A stretch of DNA of 64,000 bases, from IMG/VR virus record IMGVR_UViG_3300014325_000010, positions 33,130 through 97,129 of that record; one strand, written 5' to 3'. The translations under genes and the position numbers were made by a program. Origin of the DNA: a virus. Positions 3,451-45,052 of this stretch are shown in pieces (position 1 is the first letter of the stretch; each line of letters starts with the position of its first letter). The notes beneath the pieces are model-generated. The model was not told where the DNA came from and made no database searches. It saw only the letters and a program-made list of their open reading frames with translations.

Positions 3451-4581
3451 TTATGCCGTTTCTGGGCCTAACTCCATCGCATTGACAAGTGATGGAGTAA
3501 TAGTGACTCCACCAAAGTCAATAAAGACTGTACGATATCTAGTGTATGTATCACTCATTACATGTGTGACATCTCCTGGAGTATCCACACCAGCCGAGCG
3601 CACAAATGGAGTTATTTCTGCTGTACCAATAGTGCTCTTTTTCATTACATCTTCAGATATCACAGCTAAGATTGTTCCACTCGATACTGGTAAAGGAGCC
3701 GTAAAATATGTATCTCTTAGCCCGGAAGTTGGACCACCCTCATTATAAGAACCATCACCATCGGGAGTAGCTTCCTTTATCATGTCTCCATGATTAACCC
3801 CACTAGATGGTGTCCATTCAGCATAATTTCCATTCGATGTAAGACCTTGTAACCAATCAACTTCGACGTCACCAATTGGATCAGTCGCACCAACTCCTCC
3901 GCCTAAAGCAAGCGAACCATCTTTCATAACAAAGTCACCAAAATCCCAGGTAACAGATGGTGTTGTCGAGAAGAGATTAGATAACCAACGTAAACCAATT
4001 GCACCAGCTGTCCATTGATTATTACCAGATGGAGCAGTATTTTGACCAGTCAAACTAATGTCGGGAACTGAAGCACCATTAAACCAAAGATCAACAGTTC
4101 CGGCACTAGCATGAGGAATCACTCGAACGCACATTTGCACATGGCTATTTGCTTGCATAACATATGTAGATGTCGCAAGCAATGTTGGTGTGCCTGATCC
4201 AAAATTACCGGTATAGATTGAAACTGTTCCATCTGAATTAATAGCAAGACTTACTTGTGCTGTCGCATTATCGAGGATTGAGAAAAAGGGTTCAGCTGCT
4301 GCAAAATGAGGACCAGAATAACGAAAAGCTAGAGCAGTGATATTGGTGCCGTCATTGGACGGCATAGTCTTTGTGAGATAGTTGTTGTAACCAATCCCAG
4401 AGTGATTGATAAGATTGAATCGTATACCAGGACGTCCACCTCGACCATATGCTCCAATGACTTGTGTGCCTGGAGAAGCTGGACTAAAAGTTTGGGATGT
4501 CCAAAATCCTAATGCTACAGCTTCTGCTGGAGTAGCATAACCACCAAATCCGTCAGCAAAAAGTTTTTGATCATTTGACAT
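3451..4581 (-). CDS. Putative tail tip / baseplate-associated structural protein
   Basis: 376 aa, G/S/T/N-rich beta-type composition, positioned 2 genes downstream of the tape measure protein. Confidence 0.45.
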   Translation of the reverse strand: MSNDQKLFADGFGGYATPAEAVALGFWTSQTFSPASPGTQVIGAYGRGGRPGIRFNLINHSGIGYNNYLTKTMPSNDGTNITALAFRYSGPHFAAAEPFFSILDNATAQVSLAINSDGTVSIYTGNFGSGTPTLLATSTYVMQANSHVQMCVRVIPHASAGTVDLWFNGASVPDISLTGQNTAPSGNNQWTAGAIGLRWLSNLFSTTPSVTWDFGDFVMKDGSLALGGGVGATDPIGDVEVDWLQGLTSNGNYAEWTPSSGVNHGDMIKEATPDGDGSYNEGGPTSGLRDTYFTAPLPVSSGTILAVISEDVMKKSTIGTAEITPFVRSAGVDTPGDVTHVMSDTYTRYRTVFIDFGGVTITPSLVNAMELGPETA

Positions 4582-5433: not shown

Positions 5434-8400
5434 GATTTCCTCGCTATAGATTCGAATGCAGTGCGAATTCCACCTTCATCATTACGAATAGATTCTAATA
5501 ATTTTGGAATGAATTTCCCTCTAACATCATTAATATCAGCACCATCTACCTTTATAGAAAAAGTGACATATGTTTGCATTGGTTCTGATTTAGTTCCAGT
5601 ATTGGAACCAGTTCCAATTCCGCCAACACCATGTATTACTTGACCACTGTCAATTATAGGTGGTGAACTGGATTCTGGCGTAGAAGTCTCACCAGAAGAT
5701 CTATTCGTCACATATGGTGGAGGAGTCCAGGGATATCGAGCGAATCCCCCATTATCTGGATTGGATGTATCTATAATACTTGGGAATATTGGATTTCCAA
5801 TTTGGTCTCCTGCTAAAAACGATTCGAACATTTTATTTTGAGCTACTGTTAACACGCGTTCTCCAGGTGTTAACCAGGCAGGAACTGTGTCTGTCGAATT
5901 GAGTCCTCTAATTCCTCCGCCAGTAGCAAAATTTTTCGCTCGAACCACACCACCAAGTGCAAATCCACGTTCCTCACCACTTGTATCTGGTGGTTGAGTT
6001 TCCGGAGGACCATTAGAAACAGTATGAGTTTCATCTACATGAACATGTGTAATTGGTGGCAACCCTCGAAGAGCACGAGCCAAATCATCAATAGTATCAG
6101 TTAATGTTTGAATAGCATCTTGAATAGTTGGCGGAGGAGTAATAGCATCTTTCCAAATACCCTCGTCCTTACTTTGATCAATCATCTGTTGCGTTATTGC
6201 ATCGAGGGGGACACCAAGCTTTTTAGCTTCAATCTCTGCTTGATGTAAATAGTCTTGCATTGGTAATAATGCATCTTTTGTGGTTCCTCCCGCCCGAAAG
6301 GCTGCATCTTGCAAACGTGTGTATAATTGAAGAGCAGTTCGTTGTTGGGCACTAAACATATCAGTCGTTTCTTGACCAATACTGTCTAGACCCGTCATCA
6401 TCTTAGTTAATCCAGAAATACCATTGAATAATGTCCCAGAACCACGTAACATTGTATTCTGTGTAAATAGTTGCTTAAGCCCAACATCCTCAACTTTAAT
6501 ACCAAGATCTTCATATTCTTGTTGAAGAACTGCCAGAGCGTCACTTTCGTCTTTTAATGCATCGAGAGGACTCGCTCCCGCTGCTACTCGAGTGAGGTAA
6601 GTTCCAAGAGCTTCGGAACTCAGGTCAGCAAGTTCTCCTGCTGCATTTTTACCAGCAGTTGTTTGTTTTTCAATTGCATCTTTTAAGTCTTTAGCAGCCT
6701 TTTCTAATTGAGAACTAGAAGCAGTTCCACTTTCAACCAACTTTTTCTGTGCTTCCGTAGCATCATCAACAGCTTTTTTGATATCATCATAGCCAGCAAC
6801 AGCATCTTTCTGCGCAGCCATTACATCATTAAAACCAGACATAATCGCAGCTGTTTGCTGTGTAATAAACTCTCGAACTTCTTTAGCATTCGTGCCGTAT
6901 TTTTTATTCAGGTCAAGAACCCGAGTCCAAGCTTCTGTAATACGACCAGCAGAATCAACTGAAGCAGCAGCAAGATCTTCCGTATTCTGCTTTAATATTT
7001 GTAGAGTTTCTGCAATTGGTTTCATTGCAGCATCAAATTCTTGTGGTGTTTTAGCATCCCACAATTTATGTAATGCTGCTTCAGCTTCTGTTCCTTTATG
7101 CCCAGTTAACGCATAAGCTTCCCCAACAGATTTAATTTCATCTTCGGTGCTACCAAACATCTTGACAAGAGCAGCTTGTTTATCCTTTACTTCATCCCAA
7201 AGTTTACCAGCAGCTCGCCAACCGGCAATAGCACCAGCTATTCCTCCAACTAAAGCACCAATACCAGTGCCAAGAACAGGAACTACCGAACCAATTGCAG
7301 CACCAGCAGCAGCTCCTGCACCTGCTCCCATAGCAGCACCAAGAGGTTTGCTCTCGGTTTTGCTACCAAGCCATTGACCAAGTTGCCAACCAGCAATACC
7401 CGCACCAGCTGCAGCACCCATAGCGCCGGCAGCAGCACCCAATCCTCCCGCTCCACTGCTAGCTGCCATGCTGGATGTAACATTTGGTATCGTCGCCGCG
7501 CCAGCGATCCCGTGACTAGCTAGGGTACCGGCTACCGCCGGGGTCGCAACAGACGCGCCATAAGCCACTGCTGGGGCCGCCACAGTGGAGGCGTAGTGCG
7601 CTGCTATAGCGCCGAAGGCGTATTTAGTTCCAAGGTTTTGAGCAGTACTGACTAAATTATTGCCGATACTCCCACCGCCACCACCGCCACCACCACTATT
7701 GGAAAGATAATTTGAAACACCCGTGTATTGACTGACCCAATTAAGTAATGCTTGTTGAAGTACATTTCGGAAATAGTTCATTATTGGTGCAATGAACAAA
7801 TTTTCAAAGTCGGCCATCATTCCAGCTAAGATATTCCGGAATGGAGTCCACATCGATTGGATTAAAGTAGTTTGAAATGCATCTCCAAAAGATTTTGTGT
7901 CATCGAGGAATTCGCCCCAAGTAGAAGCATTAGTCTTACGCATGTCCTCGTTGAGAGATTGCCATGCGGTCCAGACAGGGTCCATTGCGGCGACCACCGC
8001 AAATGCTTCATCCTTGGCTAATTTAATTCGCGCATTAACAAGTCTTGTATCCGAATCCAAACCTTGTTTACGTAATTTTTCTAAATCAGCTTGTAAAGCA
8101 ATCTCGATTTTAGTAAGTTCAGTTTGTTGCTTTGTTCCAAGAAGACCGAGCATTACTTCTTGATCTTTTAAACGAAGTGCCTCTAATTCAGCATCACTTC
8201 TTTCTTGCCATTTAAAACGATCTACAGCTATTCTCGCGGCACCTTTGGCCTCGATTGCATAGACCATTTCCTGAATATGCTCAGCAGTATCACCAGCCGC
8301 TTTTTGACGTTTGGTGTATTCGTAAATCTCCGTCGTTGTAGCAAGTTGAATTTGTGCGATTTCTTTACCAAGACCTTGTTGTCCTATCTCACCACGGATA

Positions 8401-11400
8401 GCATAACCTTGCATCCACACCTTAGTAATTTCATCATCCGCCTTCTCCCACATATTTGTGAAATTGGTAGCATTTGTTCTATTCTTAACGAGTGCATCAG
8501 CTTGGGAACGAGTTAAGTCTGGAAACATTCCTTCGAGCATTGCAACGCCAGCACCTTGATCTGCCGCAGCTTTGGCGCCATCACGAATACCGGCATTAAT
8601 ACCAGCAATAGTATCTGTAACCGTTGCTCCAAGGGAACGAAAATCATCCCAAGCATCGACGATTTTTCCAATGGCTTTGTATTGTCTCTCGAGTTCCTTA
8701 TTGTAGTTTTCTGCCAGAATTGGACTCATGAATTGTTCGGCATGAGCTGTTACAGAAGCCGGAATACCCTTGGAGAAACCTTCGTTAAGTTGAGTCTTTT
8801 GTGCATCTGTTAATTCAATAACTGCATCTCGAAGTTTCTCTGTTCCCTTGACAGCCTCGATTTGGCTCTTCGTAAGATTGGGAAATTTGGCAGCTACTTT
8901 GTCGACACTATCTCCCATTTGTAGATAATAGTCAACAACTTTTATCTGCTCTGTAGAGAGAGTATCAAGAATACTGAGCCAACCACCAGAGTCTTGTGCC
9001 CAGTCGCTCCATGCTTTATTGTAGTCTTCAATTGCTTTTTTTGCTTTTGAAGTCGTTTCTGCAGATTTTTCAAAAGGATTAACTGGATTGATAATTTTAG
9101 CAACATTAGACCCAGGAGTCACTCCTGAGAAAGGCAATAAATTTCTCGAAGCTAAATCTAAATTTGTGGTGTCACTTGGTAAAAACGAACTATTTTTTAC
9201 AGATTTTTCATGGTCAATTACCCATTGTAATATTCCTTTAATTTCGTTCAGTTTTAAACGAGCTTGATCAATACCTGTTAAATCACCAAATAGTTCTTTA
9301 ATAACGCTTCCATTCGAAGCTTTACTGTCTGTCATCCAGCGCAAAATTCCTTGAATCTCAAGGAATTTTAAACGACTTTCTTCTAGTCCAGTTAGATTAT
9401 TGTACAATTCCCATAACACACTACCACTTGGAACAGGATCATTGAGTAGCCCTGATAATTCTTTAACTTGATTCTTAATATCAGTCATTAAACTCAAAAC
9501 TTCAGGACCTTTGCTATTTTCCCAAAGTTTTTCTAGATCATTCCAATGTTGATAAAGTTCATATACTGCTACACCTAATGCAACAATAATTGCTCCATAT
9601 CCTGTTAATTCGAGAGCAGTCATTCCTCCTAGAAGACCGGCTCCAGCTCCAGCCTCCGTAGCAGCAACACCCACTCCACCTGCACCAATTGCGGGAAGTG
9701 CAGCACCACTTGCTACAGTCCCACCAACTTTTAAAGCAGCTAAAGTTTCTTGAGCAGTTTCTAAAGTTTTAGTTGCAAGAGCAACTTCGGAAAGACCTCT
9801 TTCAACACCGAATAGATCAAGTATGAGTTGAGCAAAACTGATACCAGCTATTTTTTCAAATGCACTGATAAGATGTCCAGCACCAATAGTGGCTTCACCA
9901 AAGAACATTAACGCCGGACCAGCAGCAATAAGAAAGAGTCCAAACGCTGCGGTTGCCGTTTGAATAGAACTTGGTAGTTTAGCCCACCATTCGACTGCTG
10001 CCTTGATGATAGGCAACATGTCTGTCTCAAACCACTTTAATAGTCTTGTAACAATTGGAAGTAATACGGCACCAATTTCAATACCAACATTATGGAGTTG
10101 AGTTTGAAATGATGCTAATTGGAAATTGAATGTGCGAGTAGTAACTTGAAAAGAATCATTCAACGTGTTATTAGCATTTAATAGTTCGTGAGTCGTAAAT
10201 GCGTATCTTTCTTCTTGAGCTCCAGCAGTTGCGAGAACGTCAACGAAAGCTCGAACATTTGGAAAGACATCATGTAATTTATCTAATCCACCCGGTAACT
10301 CCTTCATTCGTTGCGTTAAATGAATTAATGCAACGTCTAAACCCTTGGTAACCATTTCCTCCCGAAGTTCGCTCATCGAAACGCCAAGAGCTTTTAGTCC
10401 TTTCTCAGTTTTAGAACTATCATTCAACATCGTGCTTAAAATAGCACGAATACCAGTTGCAGCAATATCAGTAGAAGCACCTAAGTGGGTAAATGTAGCA
10501 ATAGAAGCATTGATATCAGCGAACTTTAAACCAAATGCAGCAGCAATAGGATTCACACGAGCCAACGCCGTTACTAATTCGTTGACCTTCATATTACCCA
10601 ATTGGACTGTCTTTACCAATTGGTCAGCTGCTTGTTCAGCTGTTAAGTTAGTGCTTTGAAATGTAAGCATTGCGCCCACAACAGCTCGTGTTGTTTCTTC
10701 AACACTACCCATTCCAATTGCACTCATCTTAGCAGAGTGAGTCATAAGATCCATGGCAGCAGCACCACGGAATCCTGCCGATTCGACAACAAATAGACCT
10801 TTAGCTAATTCTTCTGGAGCAATAGCTGTTTCTCCAGATAATTTTAGAATTTCCCCTCGAAGATTTTTTACCTCTTCAGCAGACGCACCAGCGAGAGAAA
10901 CAACTTTTGCCATGCCGGCTTCAAAATCTCCGGCAAATTTTATAGATTCTGCACCAGCCGCAGCTAAAGGAACAGAAATAGCAGCAGACATTGTAACACC
11001 GACAGCTCGCATACCGCGACCAACTTCGGTGATTACACTTCCAACATTCTGCCATTTTGACAAAGCCTCTGCTGTTTTAACAGAAGCTTCTGCATTTTGA
11101 ACAGAAAGTTGTGCTGCTCGTTGTGTGGCTTCAGCAGACGAAGCCATTGCTTTCTTTACAGCAGCATCAGCATCTTCGGCTTGTTTCTTTTGATTAGTAA
11201 ATAGACGTTGTTGCGCGTCGGCAATTTTCGAAGCATTTGCTAGTACACCAGCCCCGGCATCCGCTGCACTTTTCTCAACTTCTTTCAGTGCAACAGAAAG
11301 TTTTTTCGTTCCTGCTTCAGCAACTAATAATTTTTCTGTAGCAACTTGTAATTTCTCAACCATTCCTTGAGAAACAGCAATACCAGCTGCTCTAATTTTT

Positions 11401-32000: not shown

Positions 32001-33588
32001 CTTTTAACGATTCACTTACAGAAGTCTGCTCGGGATTAAGAGTGGTGAAAACAGTGTCAGCAACTTTAAGAACTTCTGTTATCGAAGCATTTAAATCTAT
32101 GCTGGCAGTAAGAGTATCAACAACTTTAAGAGATTCAGTTTGTGTTGTCTGTTCAGGATCTAACGAAATAGTAGGAGTGTCAACTATTTTAAGTGATTCT
32201 GTTTGTGACGTCTGTTCTGGATCTAAAGTTGTGAGTGGTGCGTCCGCAACCTTAACATTTTCCGTTAACGAATTCTGTAGAGGATCTAAAGTTGCAAAAA
32301 CTGTATCAGCAACCTTTAACGTTTCAGTTCGAGAGGATTCCTCTGGATTAAGATTTGTTGTGACATTATCCGCAATCTTAAGTGGTTCGCTTAAAGAAGT
32401 TTGTTCTGGATCAAGAGTAGTAAGCGGAGTATCTATAACTTTGAGTGGTTCAGTGAGTATGGTCTCTTCAGGATTTAGAAAAGTAGTAACAGTGTCTGCT
32501 ACCTTGATAATCTCAGATACAGACGCATTTATATCTATAGAAGCAAATACTGTATCAGCAACTTTAAGCGAATCCGTTAAAGATGTCTGTTCTGGATTTA
32601 AAGTTGTAAACGGAGTATCAACAACTTTTAATGATTCAGTTGGACTTGCTTGTTCTGGATCAATAAAGGTAGATACAGTATCTGCAATTTTCAATGACTC
32701 AGATACAGAAGTTTGCTCTGGATCTAAAGTAGCAGTTACAGTATCAGCAACTTTTAAGGAATCGGATACTGAGATTTGTTCAGGATCTAAAGTTGTTAGA
32801 ACAGTGTCAACAACTTTAAGCGATTCGGTAATTGACGACTGTTCGGGGTCTAACTTGGTAAGAACAGTATCAACAACCTTTAAAGAATCCGAAACAGATA
32901 CTTGCTCCGGATCTAAAATAGCAAATACACTATCTACCACCTTTAAAGATTCAGATACAGAAGTCTGTTCTGGATCTAAGGCAGGAGTTACTGTATCAAC
33001 GACCTTTAAAGATTCTGTCTGTAATACTAATTCAGGGTCTATCTTAGCAAGAACAGTATCAGAAATTTTTATAGATTCGGTTAATATCGTTTCTTCTGGG
33101 TTTAGAAGAATCGTAACCGTATCAGAAACTTTTACATTTTCTTGTAAACTTGTTTGTTCTGGATTTAAAGAAGCAGTAACAGTATCTACTACTTTAAGAG
33201 ATTCAGGTCCTGCTGTTTGAGAAAGATCAGTACCTGTTATAAGAGCTGCAATAACAGGACCATCAGTTACGTGTACGACACCAAGTAATTGTGCTATTCC
33301 TTGGTGAAAATCAACGATTTTTAAAGATTCCGATAAAGATACACCAAGGATGAAATCATCCTTGATTTCGATATTTTCTGTCAGAACAGACGTGGGTTGT
33401 AGCGGCGTCAACTCTGCCGTTACAGTATCTGTAATTTTTAAATTTTCAGTGGAGGATGCCGAAGGACCAGAAGTAGTGACAGACGCCGTCACCGTATCAG
33501 TAAGGCGTATGCCTTCTGAATAGTAACGGCCGTCGTCTATTCTTATTGTTTCTGGAGTAACTACTATGGAGAGATCAGCCATGCGCAA
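29017..33588 (-). CDS. Giant repetitive fibre-like protein (1523 aa, about 65 tandem 21-aa repeats with consensus xSLKVVDTVxTxLDPEQTSxx)
   Basis: A single minus-strand ORF spans 4.5 kb. Translation shows 21-aa periodicity (63-bp diverged DNA tandem repeats), each unit carrying conserved L-K-V-x-D and D/N-P-E-Q-T/S. The C-terminus has a distinct approximately 10-aa IDVVGSYxTI repeat. The opposite-strand ORFs in this span are repeat artefacts. Confidence 0.8.
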   Translation of the reverse strand: MRMADLSIVVTPETIRIDDGRYYSEGIRLTDTVTASVTTSGPSASSTENLKITDTVTAELTPLQPTSVLTENIEIKDDFILGVSLSESLKIVDFHQGIAQLLGVVHVTDGPVIAALITGTDLSQTAGPESLKVVDTVTASLNPEQTSLQENVKVSDTVTILLNPEETILTESIKISDTVLAKIDPELVLQTESLKVVDTVTPALDPEQTSVSESLKVVDSVFAILDPEQVSVSDSLKVVDTVLTKLDPEQSSITESLKVVDTVLTTLDPEQISVSDSLKVADTVTATLDPEQTSVSESLKIADTVSTFIDPEQASPTESLKVVDTPFTTLNPEQTSLTDSLKVADTVFASIDINASVSEIIKVADTVTTFLNPEETILTEPLKVIDTPLTTLDPEQTSLSEPLKIADNVTTNLNPEESSRTETLKVADTVFATLDPLQNSLTENVKVADAPLTTLDPEQTSQTESLKIVDTPTISLDPEQTTQTESLKVVDTLTASIDLNASITEVLKVADTVFTTLNPEQTSVSESLKVVDSVSTTLDPEQTSTSDSLKVVDTVSTTLDPEQATVTEALKVADTVLTTLNPEQTSLTEPVKVADTVLAFLNPEETSATDSLKVVDTVTTTLDPEQSSLSDSLKVVDTVTAITDEVVSLTEPVKVADSVLTLLNPEQTSQSDSLKVVDSVFTTLDPEQATQTESLKVADTVTADLDKIVSLSESVKVADSVFTILDPEQASQTESLKVVDTVITTLDPEQTTQTESLKVADTVTAILDKLVSLTESLKVADSVSTTLNPEQTTQTESLRVVDTPSTSLNPEQTSVQEALVISDTVTVSRDIDVSLTENVIVQDTPIADENPRPVAVPAESLSVVDSIAASIGAGTLISNESIQIADGPVNARLNPDFIYLEENLSVSDTVATTLNPEQTLVIESLKVVDSVNTVLDPEQTSQTEPIKVVDTVTTTLDPEQASSTETIKVADSVTAILDEIVSLTESLKVADSVSVTLDPEQTSVIENVKISDNVSTLLNPEQASQSEALKVVDSVFTTLDPEQAAQTETLKVSDSVAATLNPEEISLTESLKVVDLAATTLNPEETSQSDSIKVADTISTTLDPEQTTQSENLKVVDTITALIDSQSVLLIDSVKVVDTVLAFINPEQTSLTEPLSITDVVSTVLNPEQTTQSESLKVADSVSVTLDPEQITQIESVKIADTISVILNPEETSQSESVKVADTVSTLINPEQTTLTESVKVVDTVTASITVNLTANISESVKVADSVQAAVDYISVTQTESLKVADTILVSIDLSANLSESVKVSDSLTPSLGEITSVTESLKISDDITVVLNPEIASINETVKVVDSVSALITADISSLLTEAVKIQDTVTTEINPLELRVQDENLQVHDTVIVGIDLSVLAIENVAIADIVVIYIDSIVTEITSETIKISDSVQASRDLEVILIESLRIKDGPVGAGTPITIDVIGSYQTIIDVVGSYITTIDILGQYQSGIIDVVGSSQTVIDAIGTVVETIDIVGGEEV

Positions 33589-38357: not shown

Positions 38358-38857
38358 TGTTTAATAGCTTGAAGTGTCACATTATAGCTGATGCTACCCT
38401 GAGTTCCAGGAACTCTAGCAGTAGCCAATGGATGCCATGGTTTAGGTTGAGGTCTACCTAATGATTCATGTAAACTGTACAATGGACCACGAGGATCTAG
38501 CCACAGAAAGCTGGCTTCGACGATACGTGTGACATGCTGTGGATCACTTACCCACCCATGTGAATCATCACCACCATATGGACCACTAATATACACAATA
38601 CCAGAAGGTTGCACTACACGATGTAGCTCATCCCACCAAGCAAAGAATAACGGTGGTGGAACATATTCGATGACATGAGTCACTACTGCGGTATTCACAC
38701 AATTATCGGGCAGAGGGAACGGGAGTGTTCGAGGATCATGAGGGACATCTCCCTGCGGTCCCAACGTAACACTCCTTGGTTGCGGGGTTCCTCCCAACGA
38801 AACGTCAAGAAAAATTCCCTTCTTACTCTCGATAAGCTTTTTGATTTTTGAAGTCAT
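38354..38857 (-). CDS. Methyltransferase-like protein (Methyltransf_11-like core, divergent SAM loop)
   Basis: 167 aa. GIFLDVSLGG ... LPFPLPDNCVNTAVVTHVIEYVPPP...WWDELHRVVQPSGIVYIS resembles the post-motif-I region of class I methyltransferases. The glycine loop is degenerate. Confidence 0.4.
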   Translation of the reverse strand: MTSKIKKLIESKKGIFLDVSLGGTPQPRSVTLGPQGDVPHDPRTLPFPLPDNCVNTAVVTHVIEYVPPPLFFAWWDELHRVVQPSGIVYISGPYGGDDSHGWVSDPQHVTRIVEASFLWLDPRGPLYSLHESLGRPQPKPWHPLATARVPGTQGSISYNVTLQAIKQ

Positions 38858-38874
38858 ATTTAAGAGAGTGAAAC

Positions 38875-39114
38875 TTACATCACTTTCTTTCCTTCGGCCA
38901 TTAACGCATAATGATTTAACTTAGATGCGACGTCACGAGCCTCTTCCGGTGAAAAGATTAGTCGTTCTGCGGCTACACCAAATTGCATCAGAACTTTACG
39001 AATTTCCGTATTGTGACCAAATAGGATTTGGCAGGGTTGCCCATCCATACCTTGTGGTAGATTAAATTTTGGTGCCGGGCCACTAGCTTTCTTTGAATTC
39101 AGAGGTTTAGCCAT
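38875..39114 (-). CDS. Hypothetical protein
   Basis: 79-aa ORF. A strong hairpin lies just upstream (39131-39162). Confidence 0.4.
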   Translation of the reverse strand: MAKPLNSKKASGPAPKFNLPQGMDGQPCQILFGHNTEIRKVLMQFGVAAERLIFSPEEARDVASKLNHYALMAEGKKVM

Positions 39115-39130
39115 ATAATTCCTAACAGGA

Positions 39131-39162
39131 TGAAACCCAACGGTCCGTAAAGACCGTTGGGT
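39131..39162. other. Intergenic perfect hairpin (13-bp stem)
   Basis: aaacccaacggtc-cgtaaa-gaccgttgggttt, between consecutive minus-strand genes. No clean U-tract on the minus strand. Confidence 0.4.
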
Positions 39163-39169
39163 TTCACCG

Positions 39170-39526
39170 TTATTTCTTCGTTACTTCGCCACCTGACAAT
39201 TCCAAAGTAGCCGCCGCGTTCGAGGCAAACCGGGCCATTGCCGCTTCGATAGTCATAGTGTTGTCTTGCAGGTCTGCAAAAGCAACAGGGCTGATTTCTC
39301 GAACCGGAATATCCGGATGTCCATCTGCCATAAGAGCCTCTAGTTTGGCTAGAGCATCTTCCAGCAGTGCTTTACGGCGATCGTAAAGCGCAAGTGACGC
39401 CTCGATTTCCGCCTTAGTCGCGTCTTTGAGATCAAGTCGATCAAAATCTCGAAGACCTTCGTGCTGAGGAGCGAAGGCTGCCAAGAGGTTTTGAATCTCT
39501 ACGATAGCCTGTTGAACTGCAGTCAT
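39170..39526 (-). CDS. Hypothetical protein
   Basis: 118 aa. Strong Shine-Dalgarno (reverse complement of 39527-39541 gives TTAGGAGGTAGCCAATG). Confidence 0.45.
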   Translation of the reverse strand: MTAVQQAIVEIQNLLAAFAPQHEGLRDFDRLDLKDATKAEIEASLALYDRRKALLEDALAKLEALMADGHPDIPVREISPVAFADLQDNTMTIEAAMARFASNAAATLELSGGEVTKK

Positions 39527-39541
39527 TGGCTACCTCCTAAA

Positions 39542-39889
39542 TTAGACGGGAGGAGCCGGAGCCTTTGGTTGGACCACACCTGCCGAGAAACCAAAGTTCT
39601 TTGCGTGAGCACTTGTCACGGTCAAAGTAACGGTGTCTTGAATCGTTTCAACACCAGCACCCAGATCCGCATCTGCCTCCACCAGATAAACTGTGTCAGC
39701 AATAGCGTCACCAGAAATCAGATCAAAGTTCAAAGGCGAAGCGGGATCCTGAGCAAAAGTCCCGTCACCACTCTGCACTGTGATCTTTAGTGCGCCATCA
39801 ATCTGTGCCGGCTTACCACCAGAAGTAAGAGGGGTAGCAGCACAACCAACGACCATCTCCTCATTCGAACAAGCAACAGCCAAGCCCAT
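39542..39889 (-). CDS. Ig-like domain protein (possible capsid/fibre accessory)
   Basis: 115 aa. Beta-sandwich-like composition (ITVQSGDGTF...TVTLTVTSAHA), Pro-rich C-terminal tail. Confidence 0.4.
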   Translation of the reverse strand: MGLAVACSNEEMVVGCAATPLTSGGKPAQIDGALKITVQSGDGTFAQDPASPLNFDLISGDAIADTVYLVEADADLGAGVETIQDTVTLTVTSAHAKNFGFSAGVVQPKAPAPPV

Positions 39890-39997
39890 GTTAGACTCCT
39901 TTGTTTACGAACGTGACCAAGAATAGATACGTGAGAAAATTACTCTACTACAGGAACCGTCTGAAGTAAAGATCTTTAGATCATCTTTAATGGTCCT

Positions 39998-40720
39998 TTA
40001 CACTATCTTAACACTACCATATTCTTCCTTACTTGGTAGATCTTGAAATTGATTTGCTTTTCTTAAATTGCTTGGAATTCGAGAGGCTCTAGCTTTAGCA
40101 GATTCGCTCATTTTCTCGTGATTCATGCCAGCCATGTGTCTCGCACGTTCTTCTTCAGTCCAGGGTCGCCGCTTTTTACCAGCTTGAGCTGCGGCTATTT
40201 TCGCGTTCCATTCTGGAGTTCGTTGTCGTGCATGCGGTTTGCCTAATTTGGCTAGACGCATTTTCTCTTTAGCTTCGTCAGAACGCTTGAGACCAGTTTG
40301 GATACGTTTATTTGTTTCTATGATAACTTCACGATGAGCTTGTCCTGCTTCAGAAGCCCAATAATCTAACATAATCCTACTCTGGTGTTCACGACGTTCG
40401 TCTGTTCTTTCAAAATTACCATCACCACCAAGAGTTCCATTAACCAATAGATGACCATTTTCTTTATATTCTTTAATAAATTCTCTTTCCAGAAGTGCAG
40501 CATCATCCATTGTCTCTACAATTGCTAATATCCGCCAATCAGGAAGTATATTTTATGCAACTAATTCCTTTAACCAATTACATTTATTTGTGTGACCCTT
40601 ACCCTTTTTTGCCACGGAAATATGGTGACGAACTCTACTTTCTGCTTTTCTGGAAAACCCAATGTATCTTACATGAATAGGGTCTCGTGGATCAAAGAGA
40701 GCATAAACCGTATAAGACAT
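39998..40720 (-). pseudogene. GIY-YIG homing endonuclease gene interrupted by an in-frame TAA (forward 40553-40555)
   Basis: Reverse complement of 40556-40720 reads MSYTVYALFDPRDPIHVRYIGFS...NWLKELVA (GIY...YIG motif), then TAA. The same frame continues NILPDWRILAIVET-MDDAALLEREFIKEYKENGHLLVN (rest of the GIY-YIG core) and a C-terminal Lys/Arg-rich NUMOD-like DNA-binding region (39998-40510 ORF). Flanked by an AT-rich spacer containing a 19-bp inverted repeat (40758-40777 / 40808-40825). Confidence 0.6.
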
Positions 40721-40843
40721 GTTAACTCCTTTACGGTTTATACTACTCTAAGAACGTCTAGAAATAAAGTTCTTTATTTCGTCTTAAAATTATCTTTAAG
40801 AAATCTAAAGAACTTTATTCTAGTAACATCCAACTTGAATTTT

Positions 40844-41476
40844 CTAAGTACTGAAAACGAAGTTGTACGTAATGTTCAGAGCCTGTGTGGTTCCTTTCGT
40901 TGAACTTGCAAACGTAGCCAAGCTATGTGCCGTTCCCGCACCAACCGAACTATTGTGATACTGCGCAATGCAATTCACAGTCTGGGCGTGCGAAATGTAA
41001 GACGACACGTATTGGAACGATTGCGACAGTGTCCAAGTTCCAGACAATAGCTGAGAACCCACCGAAACAGTCGCGCGGCTCACGCCACCGGTGGACGCTA
41101 ACGGCCATTCAGTCGAGTCGATAGCAGACATAGTCGAGAAGTTGGAAGATTGTGCCTGAGTCTGGTAGCCAATACCCCAGAATCGAGCAAAACCCATGTC
41201 GCTGATGACGGTTGCAGCAACAGACGAGGCGCTGGAAGCCAACCCCGCATAGTTACGAACCACCATACCATGCCCGTAGGTGGTGATTACGTTCTCGTGG
41301 TAATCACCAATCTGTTCCTCACCGGTAATGCAGTCAACCAGTGCACCCCGAATGAAGCCCCGAATACGAGGCATTTCGCCAGGACGGCTACGTCCCATCT
41401 TAGGCACAACGCCGGTCTTTCGAACGACGTGAACCTTTCCGTCGTGTGTATGAATCTTGTCACCCTTCTGAAACAT
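40844..41476 (-). CDS. Hypothetical protein (Ser/Thr/Ala-rich C-terminal half)
   Basis: 210-aa ORF. Confidence 0.4.
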   Translation of the reverse strand: MFQKGDKIHTHDGKVHVVRKTGVVPKMGRSRPGEMPRIRGFIRGALVDCITGEEQIGDYHENVITTYGHGMVVRNYAGLASSASSVAATVISDMGFARFWGIGYQTQAQSSNFSTMSAIDSTEWPLASTGGVSRATVSVGSQLLSGTWTLSQSFQYVSSYISHAQTVNCIAQYHNSSVGAGTAHSLATFASSTKGTTQALNITYNFVFST

Positions 41477-41516
41477 TCGGATCTCCTTTAACGGTTAACT
41501 GCATTATTCGAGACGA

Positions 41517-42620
41517 TTACTTTGGAGCTACATCCAAACTGATTGTAGGAGCAAGAGCAGGTGCCGGTGCATTTGGTACATTTGGAACATTAGCACCTAG
41601 ATCAATATCAGCTATATGGTCATCGTAAATAGTGCTCGTATTATCGGTAAGAATACTCACTAATTTCAATTGGGTCCCACCAGAAGTTGTACGATACAAT
41701 TTTCTTGCTATCGTTCCAGTTGGACCTACTGCGATCCCAGCAACTTGCGCATAAAACGGACCTCCAGTAAGTGGTCCTGGTACAGTAGCACTTGCACTTG
41801 GCGCTGATTCAGTAGCCGTTGAAACCCAAGTATATGCCCAAGAACGAACACTATCCCCAGACTTAAAAGGAAACGACAGCACTTGTATATTCGAGGTGGA
41901 TGTAAGAATTCTCCCACTCTCATCTCGAAGAGACAAAGTTACTGTGTATCTACCAACTTTCAAGCCATTTACTACTCCTGGTACAGACATTCTACCAGTT
42001 GCAGCCGTTCCATCCGTTAATCCAGTTGTAACCGTTTCGGGTGATGGACTCGAATCAAAAACAATATCACGAAAATAGTTGTCGGAATTTCTAGTCGCTG
42101 GGTATCTACCGGAAGCAGCATATACACCAATTGATCCAGTAAGTGTATTATTCACGATTGCTTTCGAATAGCCATTTTTGATAGTTGCGTAATGCGCTCC
42201 GCTTGGGTTATTGACACTAGCCACAAAGACCACATTAGCATCTATGGCTACTGGAGTAATTGCCTGTTCTTGCCATCCAGAAGGGGTTTCATTAACAAAG
42301 GTAGCAGTTGCAAGCAAAGTACCAGAAGTATTCCACAAATGACCAATATGTGGACCAAGATCACCAAGCATTTTGTAGAACCGAATAGCTGTGACTCTTC
42401 CAGCAACAGAACTTTTTGCTTGAAGTCCTAATTCGTTTGAACTTGTACCACCAGAAGACACAGGAACTTGGGTGGTCAAAACAGTATTTAATACTGGTCC
42501 TGCTCCGGCGTCTTGCGCTCTCGGATTTTGCACCAATAGAAATAATACGAATGCTAGACTCAATTTATGTATCACTTGGTTTCTCTGGTTTTTTGGAAAG
42601 TCCATCTCTTGGAATTCCAT
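41517..42620 (-). CDS. Secreted beta-rich protein with N-terminal signal peptide
   Basis: 367 aa. N-terminal charged n-region then LSLAFVLFLLV and AQDA cleavage-like site. S/T/G/N-rich body. 5' end overlaps the preceding gene by about 50 nt, so the true start may be an internal Met. Confidence 0.45.
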   Translation of the reverse strand: MEFQEMDFPKNQRNQVIHKLSLAFVLFLLVQNPRAQDAGAGPVLNTVLTTQVPVSSGGTSSNELGLQAKSSVAGRVTAIRFYKMLGDLGPHIGHLWNTSGTLLATATFVNETPSGWQEQAITPVAIDANVVFVASVNNPSGAHYATIKNGYSKAIVNNTLTGSIGVYAASGRYPATRNSDNYFRDIVFDSSPSPETVTTGLTDGTAATGRMSVPGVVNGLKVGRYTVTLSLRDESGRILTSTSNIQVLSFPFKSGDSVRSWAYTWVSTATESAPSASATVPGPLTGGPFYAQVAGIAVGPTGTIARKLYRTTSGGTQLKLVSILTDNTSTIYDDHIADIDLGANVPNVPNAPAPALAPTISLDVAPK

Positions 42621-42801
42621 ATCGCTTCATTTTATGATTCATCATACGCGGACTAATACCCAACACCTCTGCTGCCTTTTTTTGATTACCACCAGAAAAT
42701 GCTAGCGATTCGAGTAAAACACTTCTAATAACAGACTTTAACGTTGGTGGTTTCTTTACAGGAACCCATTCACCATTTTCGTCTTCATAATATTGTTTCA
42801 T
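42565..42801 (-). CDS. Fis-family helix-turn-helix DNA-binding protein
   Basis: 78 aa. C-terminal GNQKKAAEVLGISPRMMNHKMKRYGI matches Fis/NtrC-type HTH_8. Confidence 0.5.
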   Translation of the reverse strand: MKQYYEDENGEWVPVKKPPTLKSVIRSVLLESLAFSGGNQKKAAEVLGISPRMMNHKMKRYGIPRDGLSKKPEKPSDT

Positions 42802-44446: not shown

Positions 44447-45052
44447 TTACTTTTGGTTCTGTACTGCCGATGAAATCATAAGCCATTGTGCTACAGCTAA
44501 AAGTAATTCGGTTCCCTCACCACTTTTAGGGACCATGGCGTTACATCCGGAGTCCAGAGCTTTTTTACGTCCTGCATAACGTTCGGATAAGCTGGGCCCA
44601 ACAGATCCACTATGAGCAATAATTGGAACCTGCCATCCCGTTAAACGAACTTGTCGTGCGAACTCATAACCATCCATCATACCCAATCGTATATCGAGAA
44701 CGATTAAGTCTGGTAGTCCTTCGTTCACTAAAGAAGCTAATGCGGTTTCTGCATTAGAACAAGTTCGAACTTTATATCCGGTCGTTTTAAGGATCGTAGT
44801 GGTTAATCGTAAAGTAACCGGATCATCCTCGACTACCAAAATTTCTTTTTCACTGGGAACCACTTCTTTGGGAACAATCCGCGCGTTTCCAAATGTAGCA
44901 ACCACAGTACGATTGGTATCGATAGCATCCAATGTTGCTCGGGAGTGAGTAGTGATTACAGACGATAGATGTTTTGTCTGTTGTGTCAAAACGAACAAAA
45001 TTGCAAGAATGCCAAGAACGATGAGCCCTATAAAAATGGCTAAGTAATTCAT
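44447..45052 (-). CDS. Membrane-anchored response-regulator receiver (CheY-like REC) domain protein
   Basis: 201 aa. N-terminal TM helix MNYLAIFIGLIVLGILAILFVL. The REC domain has all conserved positions: ILVVEDDP (acidic pair), LIVLDIRLG (phospho-acceptor Asp), IIAHSGS (Thr/Ser), AMVPK (Lys). Confidence 0.65.
   Translation of the reverse strand: MNYLAIFIGLIVLGILAILFVLTQQTKHLSSVITTHSRATLDAIDTNRTVVATFGNARIVPKEVVPSEKEILVVEDDPVTLRLTTTILKTTGYKVRTCSNAETALASLVNEGLPDLIVLDIRLGMMDGYEFARQVRLTGWQVPIIAHSGSVGPSLSERYAGRKKALDSGCNAMVPKSGEGTELLLAVAQWLMISSAVQNQK

Follow-up and report, generated by a model that had tools for sequence, protein, structure and literature searches.

A stop codon inside an otherwise well-kept gene can mark a gene that has just been lost, a protein made in two pieces, a stop that is decoded or skipped, or a base that is not real. 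This question is raised by a GIY-YIG homing endonuclease gene in the 64,000-nucleotide (nt) stretch of viral DNA analysed here, positions 33,130 to 97,129 of IMG/VR virus record IMGVR_UViG_3300014325_000010 (hereafter, the window). We consider it likely that this is a free-standing endonuclease gene that was recently inactivated by a single G-to-T change, which converted GAA (Glu56) to TAA.

The interrupted endonuclease frame

Translation of the minus strand gives a single frame of 241 codons from 40720 to 39998 that opens with the residues MSYTVYALFDPRDPIHVRYIGFS and contains one internal TAA at 40553–40555, in agreement with the first-pass annotation of this sequence, which had recognized a GIY-YIG frame here. 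The residues KELVA stand directly before the internal stop, and a further 185 codons continue in the same frame to TAA at 39998–40000. In the nearest relative, protein P0001 of locus L001 (∼81% nucleotide identity across the gene), the codons GCA GAA AAT stand in place of the window's GCA TAA AAT. A search of ∼5.8 billion clustered proteins yields, besides the window's own 170-residue piece, 22 full-length homologues of 39–79% identity, every one of them uninterrupted and covering both halves, which places the two halves in the same protein family rather than in different ones. As ∼4.8% of the possible single-base changes in the endonuclease open reading frame (ORF) create a stop, one such event is unremarkable.

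The remainder of the gene is undecayed, which points to recent damage. All 23 of the 23 family-invariant residues are kept in the window frame. The ratio of nonsynonymous to synonymous substitution (dN/dS) with respect to L001 is 0.075 and 0.13 in the N- and C-terminal parts, respectively, next to 0.02–0.10 for the neighbouring genes, and private amino-acid changes, counted with P0004 or P0005 as the outgroup, number 4–7 in the window lineage versus 12 in P0001. By these measures no sign of relaxed constraint appears in the window lineage. A recent nonsense mutation, the reading first proposed for this codon, is thus borne out by the GAA of the nearest relative, by the integrity of 22 of 22 homologues and by the lack of any further decay.

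Family searches place the stop within the nuclease. On the joined sequence, the Pfam GIY-YIG model (PF01541) aligns to residues 3–88, across the stop, at 24.4 bits (cut-off 22.6); the 55-residue piece alone scores 19.9 bits, and the 170-residue piece alone matches no nuclease model in Pfam. PF01541 is matched in 17 of the 23 family members, and PHROG 314 ‘homing endonuclease’ is matched at E = 3.8e-13. The match to NUMOD3 is weak for the window protein (14.3 bits, cut-off 20.4) and reaches E ≤ 0.01 in 10 of the 23 relatives. Residues Y6, Y19/G21, R29, H33, E78 and N94 are invariant across the family and all present in the window frame, as is W49 of the N-terminal fragment. We take the catalytic residues of the window frame to match Y6, Y17, R27, E75 and N90 of I-TevI. 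A profile search against PDB sequences finds I-TevI (1mk0) only at E = 0.74; the top match in that search, the DNA-binding protein SSO0352 (E = 7e-5), lies in the low-complexity helical tail and was set aside.

An AlphaFold2 model was built for P0001, a homologue with 79% amino-acid identity that stands in for the window protein. The mean predicted local distance difference test score (pLDDT) of this model is 82.9, with values above 90 over the nuclease domain (residues 1–100), whose elements are strand 1 (3–10), strand 2 (13–23), helix 1 (26–39), helix 2 (45–55), strand 3 (61–68) and helix 3 (71–87); the C-terminal region is a run of short helices. In a Foldseek search with the model, the top match is the I-TevI catalytic domain 1mk0 (target-normalized template-modelling score 0.76, root mean square deviation 2.8 Å, probability 1.0), followed by 1ln0, also I-TevI, and then by other GIY-YIG nucleases. 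The fold model therefore agrees with the PF01541 match in placing the stop inside the catalytic domain. Codon 56 comes immediately after helix 2, and the ATG available for a restart, codon 70, lies past strand 3. Both motif tyrosines (GIY and YIG) and the Arg thus fall in the N-terminal peptide, Glu78 and Asn94 fall in the C-terminal ORF, and strand 3 is present in neither. As the stop follows helix 2 and the next ATG lies past strand 3, neither product can form the active site, and on this model a working enzyme split between two pieces is unlikely. No paralogue of the endonuclease is found elsewhere in the window. With TAA at codon 56 and 22 homologues intact, the gene is a pseudogene of the GIY-YIG homing endonucleases (I-TevI/Seg type) and not a working member, and the 55- and 170-residue ORFs should be merged in the annotation and labelled as one pseudogene.

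In the mechanism that we propose, the ancestral gene would have encoded an I-TevI-like nuclease with a NUMOD3-type helical tail, and would have resided at one fixed intergenic site after the 210-residue gene. The G-to-T change at codon 56 would end translation to leave an inactive 55-residue peptide; were ribosomes to restart at the ATG at 40510, the product would be no more than a DNA-binding fragment devoid of nuclease activity. Inactivated copies are to be expected in the cycle of invasion, fixation, decay and loss that homing endonuclease genes pass through, and the window gene would stand at the ‘degeneration’ stage of this homing cycle.

Other members of the family show signs of recombination or rearrangement. 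P0001 (L001) and P0003 (L029) are near-identical over the C-terminal third including the tail and ∼50% identical over the N-terminal part, with a pairwise synonymous divergence (dS) of 0.58 and dN/dS of 0.50, a pattern that points to recombination between endonuclease alleles. In P0023, a protein of 236 residues from an NCBI contig, the N-terminal half of the nuclease domain is missing and part of the interior matches Pfam Phage_portal (E = 1.2e-9); this copy may be chimeric or the product of rearrangement.

The insertion site and its RNA structures

The features of the locus are collected in Table 1. In nine of nine other contexts fetched, the endonuclease gene lies directly after a homologue of the 210-residue gene. 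These occupied sites comprise L001/L002, L035–37, L029, L030 and L038, whose endonucleases are 79, 59, 58, 50 and 50% identical to that of the window, respectively, and the more distant L040 (47%), L031 (46%), L011 (45%) and L032/33 (40%). The empty site is seen in L003–L009, seven IMG/VR phages that are near-identical to each other here and count as about one lineage, in which the 210-residue gene is followed by ∼65 nt and then by the 79-residue gene; the thirteen related loci without the endonuclease also include L010 and L012–L015. Comparison with phages that lack the gene thus defines the insertion site as lying just after the 210-residue gene. The endonuclease is intergenic, between two ORFs, and an Rfam search of 38800–41600 yields neither an intron nor any other family above threshold. 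It is free-standing, as had been supposed, and not intron- or intein-encoded. The last 63 nt of the 210-residue gene carry no consistent difference between carriers and non-carriers that would mark a target site or immunity. The endonuclease ORF has a guanine plus cytosine (GC) content of 39.7%, with 24.5% at third codon positions (GC3), compared with a GC3 of 55.5% in the upstream gene and a GC content of 43.7% in the window. The AT-rich spacer of about 120 bp reported upstream of the gene is indeed present, at 123 nt and 26% GC.

Table 1. Coordinates of the endonuclease pseudogene, its neighbours and the associated sequence elements in the window.
Feature	Coordinates	Strand	Description
N-terminal endonuclease fragment	40553..40720	-	55 codons and premature TAA; GIY (Y6), YIG (Y19, G21), R29, H33, W49
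Premature in-frame TAA (codon 56)	40553..40555	-	GAA (Glu) in L001/L002; Glu is commonest in the family column
Remaining endonuclease frame	39998..40552	-	Strand 3, helix 3 with catalytic E78, N94, linker, NUMOD3-like helical region (putative DNA-binding), normal stop 39998–40000
210-residue gene, conserved left neighbour	40844..41476	-	Homologue precedes the endonuclease in every context fetched; no Pfam or PHROG match
79-residue gene	38875..39114	-	Right neighbour of the 210-residue gene in phages without the endonuclease (empty site)
Two extra genes (115 and 118 residues; 51% GC)	39170..39889	-	Between the endonuclease and the 79-residue gene; not part of the endonuclease
Ribosome-binding site hairpin	40696..40749	-	Encloses Shine-Dalgarno AAGGAG 40726–40731 and start codon 40718–40720; core arms 40727–40744 / 40700–40717
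Inverted repeat	40758..40823		Arms 40758–40776 / 40806–40823; 18 pairs, one bulge, 29-nt loop; TAAAGNNCTTTA palindrome in each arm
Conserved upstream element	40733..40802	-	TTAAAGAT..(T/A)AAAGAnCTTTA..CTTA(T/G)AGTAG, into the 5′ arm of the ribosome-binding site hairpin; common to L001, L029 and L030
Second, degenerate copy of the upstream element	39939..39991	-	Just past the endonuclease stop, before the 115-residue gene; third palindrome TAAAGATCTTTA at 39967–39978

An RNA hairpin closes over the ribosome-binding site and start codon of the endonuclease, and a conserved hairpin in this position is a new finding here. In the window it has a folding energy of −26.7 kcal/mol (z = −5.7), with AGGA of the Shine-Dalgarno sequence paired and AUG in the loop; in L001 the corresponding values are −29.3 kcal/mol and z = −8.3. 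Both L029 and L030 keep the hairpin with compensatory changes (AAACCGU/ACGGUUU to AGAUUGU/ACAGUCU). Across these four sequences, 96.3% of cells are paired, as opposed to 24–52% in slid controls, and 3 of 21 pairs are changed on both sides. As only four sequences are compared and the 3′ arm is coding, the support from covariation is modest. In the more distant L031, L035 and L040, the hairpins that cover this region are unrelated. Control of translation by hairpins that sequester the ribosome-binding site has been described for I-TevI, I-TevII, I-TevIII, segB and mobE (PMC2988022). By analogy with I-TevI and segB of T4 and mobE of Aeh1, the hairpin would probably have throttled the expression of the intact gene. 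The conservation of the hairpin suggests that the translational throttling of T-even endonucleases extends to an unrelated lineage of phages, and that such hairpins may be a general solution for tolerating these genes.

Upstream of this hairpin, the first-pass annotation had placed a 19-bp inverted repeat at 40758–40777 / 40808–40825. The repeat exists, but its boundaries are off by 1–2 nt and it consists of 18 pairs with one bulge (Table 1), including a perfect core of 14 nt (40763–40776 / 40806–40819). It starts 20 nt past the stop of the 210-residue gene and folds, as coding-strand RNA, at −27.9 kcal/mol (z = −5.3). Stable hairpins of unrelated sequence stand at the same position in L001, L029 and L030 (z = −3.4, −4.35 and −3.55, respectively; 17 perfect pairs in L029), and in the empty-site phages this position is taken by a short GC-rich stem with a T-run after it, the fold of which does not exceed shuffled sequence in stability (z = 0.21). 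The repeat had been taken as typical of a homing endonuclease insertion; this does not hold, given that carriers have hairpins of differing sequence after the 210-residue gene and that empty sites have a stem and T-run. Most likely it is a hairpin that closes the message of the 210-residue gene, as a terminator or 3′ stabilizer.

The inverted repeat overlaps a conserved palindromic box. The palindrome TAAAGNNCTTTA occurs three times in 64 kb (0.10 expected), namely in both arms (40765–40776 and 40806–40817) and at a site 20 nt past the endonuclease stop. The right arm of the repeat belongs to the conserved upstream element, the last box of which, CTTATAGTAG, lies at the 5′ edge of the ribosome-binding site hairpin and does not recur upstream of other genes in the window. 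Searches with mismatches for CTTATAGTAGCA and AAAGATCTTTAC upstream of other window genes likewise gave no meaningful recurrence. The idea that the conserved boxes are general promoter motifs of the phage was therefore dropped; only TAAAGNNCTTTA is specific, with three of three sites at the cassette. The palindromic box could be an operator, a possibility suggested by the autorepression of I-TevI. A scan of 39800–41000 for sigma-70 promoters and intrinsic terminators gave nothing above shuffled expectation.

The junctions of the insert can be followed in the relatives. In L011 (6622–6717) and L031 (∼3900–3959), the 210-residue homologue is without its usual ...NFVFST stop and runs ∼20–30 codons into inserted DNA, so that the left junction of the insert would be that stop codon of the 210-residue gene. 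On the other side, the endonuclease ORF of L001 (10657–10738) and of L029 (∼1890–1974) overlaps the 5′ end of the 79-residue gene by ∼70–80 nt in another frame. The tail of the window endonuclease (KANQFQDLPSKEEYG) is homologous to this overlap stretch, and the 79-residue gene of the window now lies 880 nt away. The 115- and 118-residue genes are absent from all related loci fetched. As they stand behind the second, degenerate copy of the endonuclease upstream element, they suggest a separate insertion or recombination event beside the endonuclease. Between the 118- and 79-residue genes, at 39122–39168 on the minus strand, sub-threshold Rfam matches to P37 sRNA (22.7 bits) and mir-584 (20.8 bits) are probably due to chance and reflect a terminator-like hairpin.

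The window and L001 are collinear at 68–82% nucleotide identity from the terminase side through a CmcI-type methyltransferase, in the order portal, DUF4082 gene, 210-residue gene, endonuclease, 79-residue gene, 167-residue gene and CmcI-type methyltransferase. Between the DUF4082 gene and the 210-residue gene, L001 has five extra genes (6089–9206; 102, 77, 559, 189 and 64 residues) whose counterpart in the window is a gap of 40 nt (41477–41516), so that gene content changes on both sides of the 210-residue/endonuclease pair. The placement of the cassette between structural genes, as originally described, is not established, as neither the 210-residue gene nor the small downstream genes match any family in Pfam or PHROG and the next recognizable genes are methyltransferases. 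In L032, a capsid-like gene precedes the 210-residue gene. Next to the portal gene, on its upstream side towards the terminase, the window has a gene for a 201-residue protein with a response-regulator receiver domain (44447–45052, minus strand; Pfam Response_reg, 66 bits); this protein is conserved in L001 and L034, and its domain is unusual for that region of a phage genome. Megablast of 38500–42700 against a collection of 50,697 phage records gives no match, the best match of the terminase in that collection does not exceed 41% identity, and tblastn of the endonuclease against it yields one distant match (32%). Judged by these comparisons, the host is an uncultured tailed phage group with no cultured relative available for comparison.

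Weighing the explanations of the stop

Whether the TAA is real can be addressed from a second assembly. Logan contig L034 (run SRR7975957), which was found by exact protein match and encodes the exact 210-residue neighbour protein, is 100% identical to the window over 4,060 nt, TAA included; the same 55-residue product is called on it, and the contig ends inside the endonuclease gene at window position 40417. As this second assembly is identical including the TAA, an artefact of one assembler is ruled out. The sequencing error that had been named at the outset as an alternative is thereby weakened and not fully removed. It is unlikely, though not to be neglected, that the TAA is other than the real or majority sequence, that is, an error of sequencing or consensus calling, or a variant carried by a minority while the gene is intact in most genomes. 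A flawless remainder, with its invariant residues, low dN/dS and no excess of change, looks just like such an error; the source is a metagenome assembly, and the Logan contig ends inside the gene, perhaps where coverage was low or the assembly graph branched. The identity of a separately built assembly over 4,060 nt argues against it, as do the rarity of substitution errors in short-read consensus and the finding that no intact near-identical allele exists among the ∼5.8 billion clustered proteins, where the best intact protein is 79% identical. Pattern scans for an intact allele over the stop region, in which the mutated base was left free as N, gave 0 matches in viral contigs, a result that is uninformative as the source contig is outside both collections; the two matches in metagenome contigs are chance AT-rich sequence unrelated to the window.

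Recent inactivation has to be held against several further considerations, which together lower our confidence in it. A minority allele or a systematic base-call error common to both assemblies is possible, and the two assemblies may be based on the same reads. The undecayed remainder of the gene makes a very recent mutation and one that is not a real, fixed mutation look alike. We infer cleavage and homing from family membership and distribution, and ordinary recombination could also produce the site-specific pattern of presence and absence. The T4-like timing logic of the hairpin is drawn by analogy only, and the sigma-70 scan found no promoter above chance.

If the TAA is real, the downstream frame might still be used. 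The first in-frame ATG past the stop lies at 40508–40510 (codon 70), 42 nt after the TAA, and opens the 170-residue ORF; no in-frame ATG, GTG or TTG intervenes. On this account, to which we give a slim chance, the split is functional, in that the 170-residue product serves as a nuclease-dead DNA-binding protein for repression or site protection, or the pieces reassemble into an active nuclease. The nearby ATG fits such a scheme, as do an intact and conserved C-terminal ORF (dN/dS 0.13), TAAAGNNCTTTA boxes on both sides of the gene and nowhere else in 64 kb, and the precedent of I-TevI, an autorepressor through its DNA-binding domain (PMC2988022). The low dN/dS, however, fits a recent mutation equally well, and no other member of the family is split. 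The sequence 5′ of the ATG at 40510, ‘gcaattgtagagaca’, is without an AGGAG-type Shine-Dalgarno site, unlike the genes immediately around it; ‘taaaggagttaac’ stands before the true endonuclease start, and similar AGGAG-type sites serve the adjacent genes. Reassembly is implausible given that residues 57–69, including strand 3 (61–68) of the three-stranded sheet, are in neither product. Expression in two pieces from the ATG at 40510, which had been put forward as an option, is thus disfavoured. We regard as slimmer still the chance that the nonsense allele is maintained for a 170-residue DNA-binding protein acting on TAAAGNNCTTTA, as a domesticated repressor or site-protection factor that would control, for example, the 115/118-residue pair. 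Hardly credible, in our judgement, is a stop that is decoded or skipped, by a suppressor transfer RNA (tRNA), by code reassignment or by bypass from GCA (codon 55) to an in-frame GCA 33 nt downstream. Ribosomal bypass has a precedent in T4 gene 60, the GCA before the stop does recur in frame at codon 66, and the full 161-kb record could hold tRNA genes outside the window. However, 31 of the 47 minus-strand genes in the window terminate normally at TAA, more than at any other stop, and the 64-kb window contains no tRNA genes, so that code reassignment is as improbable as first judged; bypass, moreover, would delete strand 3. Bypass of the gene 60 type was rejected also because the 33 nt match the coding sequence of the intact homologues codon by codon, with the conserved W62 and L65 among the encoded residues, leaving no ‘coding gap’.

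Comparison with known systems

On its own, the inactivation of this gene carries little weight, as elements of this kind ordinarily pass through such a stage and T4 is known to have defunct copies. It does provide a clean, datable example of decay, a single hit with no secondary decay, and it comes together with intact alleles at 40–79% identity and with empty sites in sister phages, a set that may be used to measure homing and decay.

The closest structural parallel is I-TevI of the T4 td intron (1mk0, 1ln0), with which the window protein shares the catalytic fold, the GIY/YIG/Arg/His/Glu/Asn motif set and a two-part build of N-terminal nuclease and C-terminal DNA-binding region (putative in the window protein), and whose ribosome-binding site is likewise covered by an RNA hairpin (T4: PMC2988022). 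The two differ in sequence (∼17% identity) and in setting, in that I-TevI is intron-encoded, whereas the window gene is free-standing and its present copy is interrupted by a stop. The predicted DNA-binding region of the window protein consists of NUMOD3-like helices, and the zinc finger/helix-turn-helix of the I-TevI type was not found by family search.

In genomic habit, the gene resembles T4 SegA–G and Aeh1/T4 mobE, which are also free-standing and intergenic, are present in some relatives and absent from others, and overlap or abut their neighbours; segB and mobE in addition have a hairpin that sequesters the ribosome-binding site (PMC2988022). The Seg and mobE genes lie where gene content is mosaic, at its boundaries (compare PMC10448857), and the window and L001 differ on both sides of the 210-residue/endonuclease pair. 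Unlike these systems, the window belongs to an unrelated phage group, is known from sequence alone and has no recognized late promoter.

For the loss of function itself, the parallel is I-TevIII of T4, which is described in PMC2790892 as a homing endonuclease gene persisting in the phage genome after its activity was lost. I-TevIII is active in RB3 and is an intron-encoded member of the HNH family (Table 1 of PMC2988022). As in the defunct I-TevIII, the endonuclease gene of the window appears to have remained in its phage genome after losing activity; in contrast, it belongs to the GIY-YIG rather than the HNH family, and its damage is confined to one nonsense codon in an otherwise undamaged gene.

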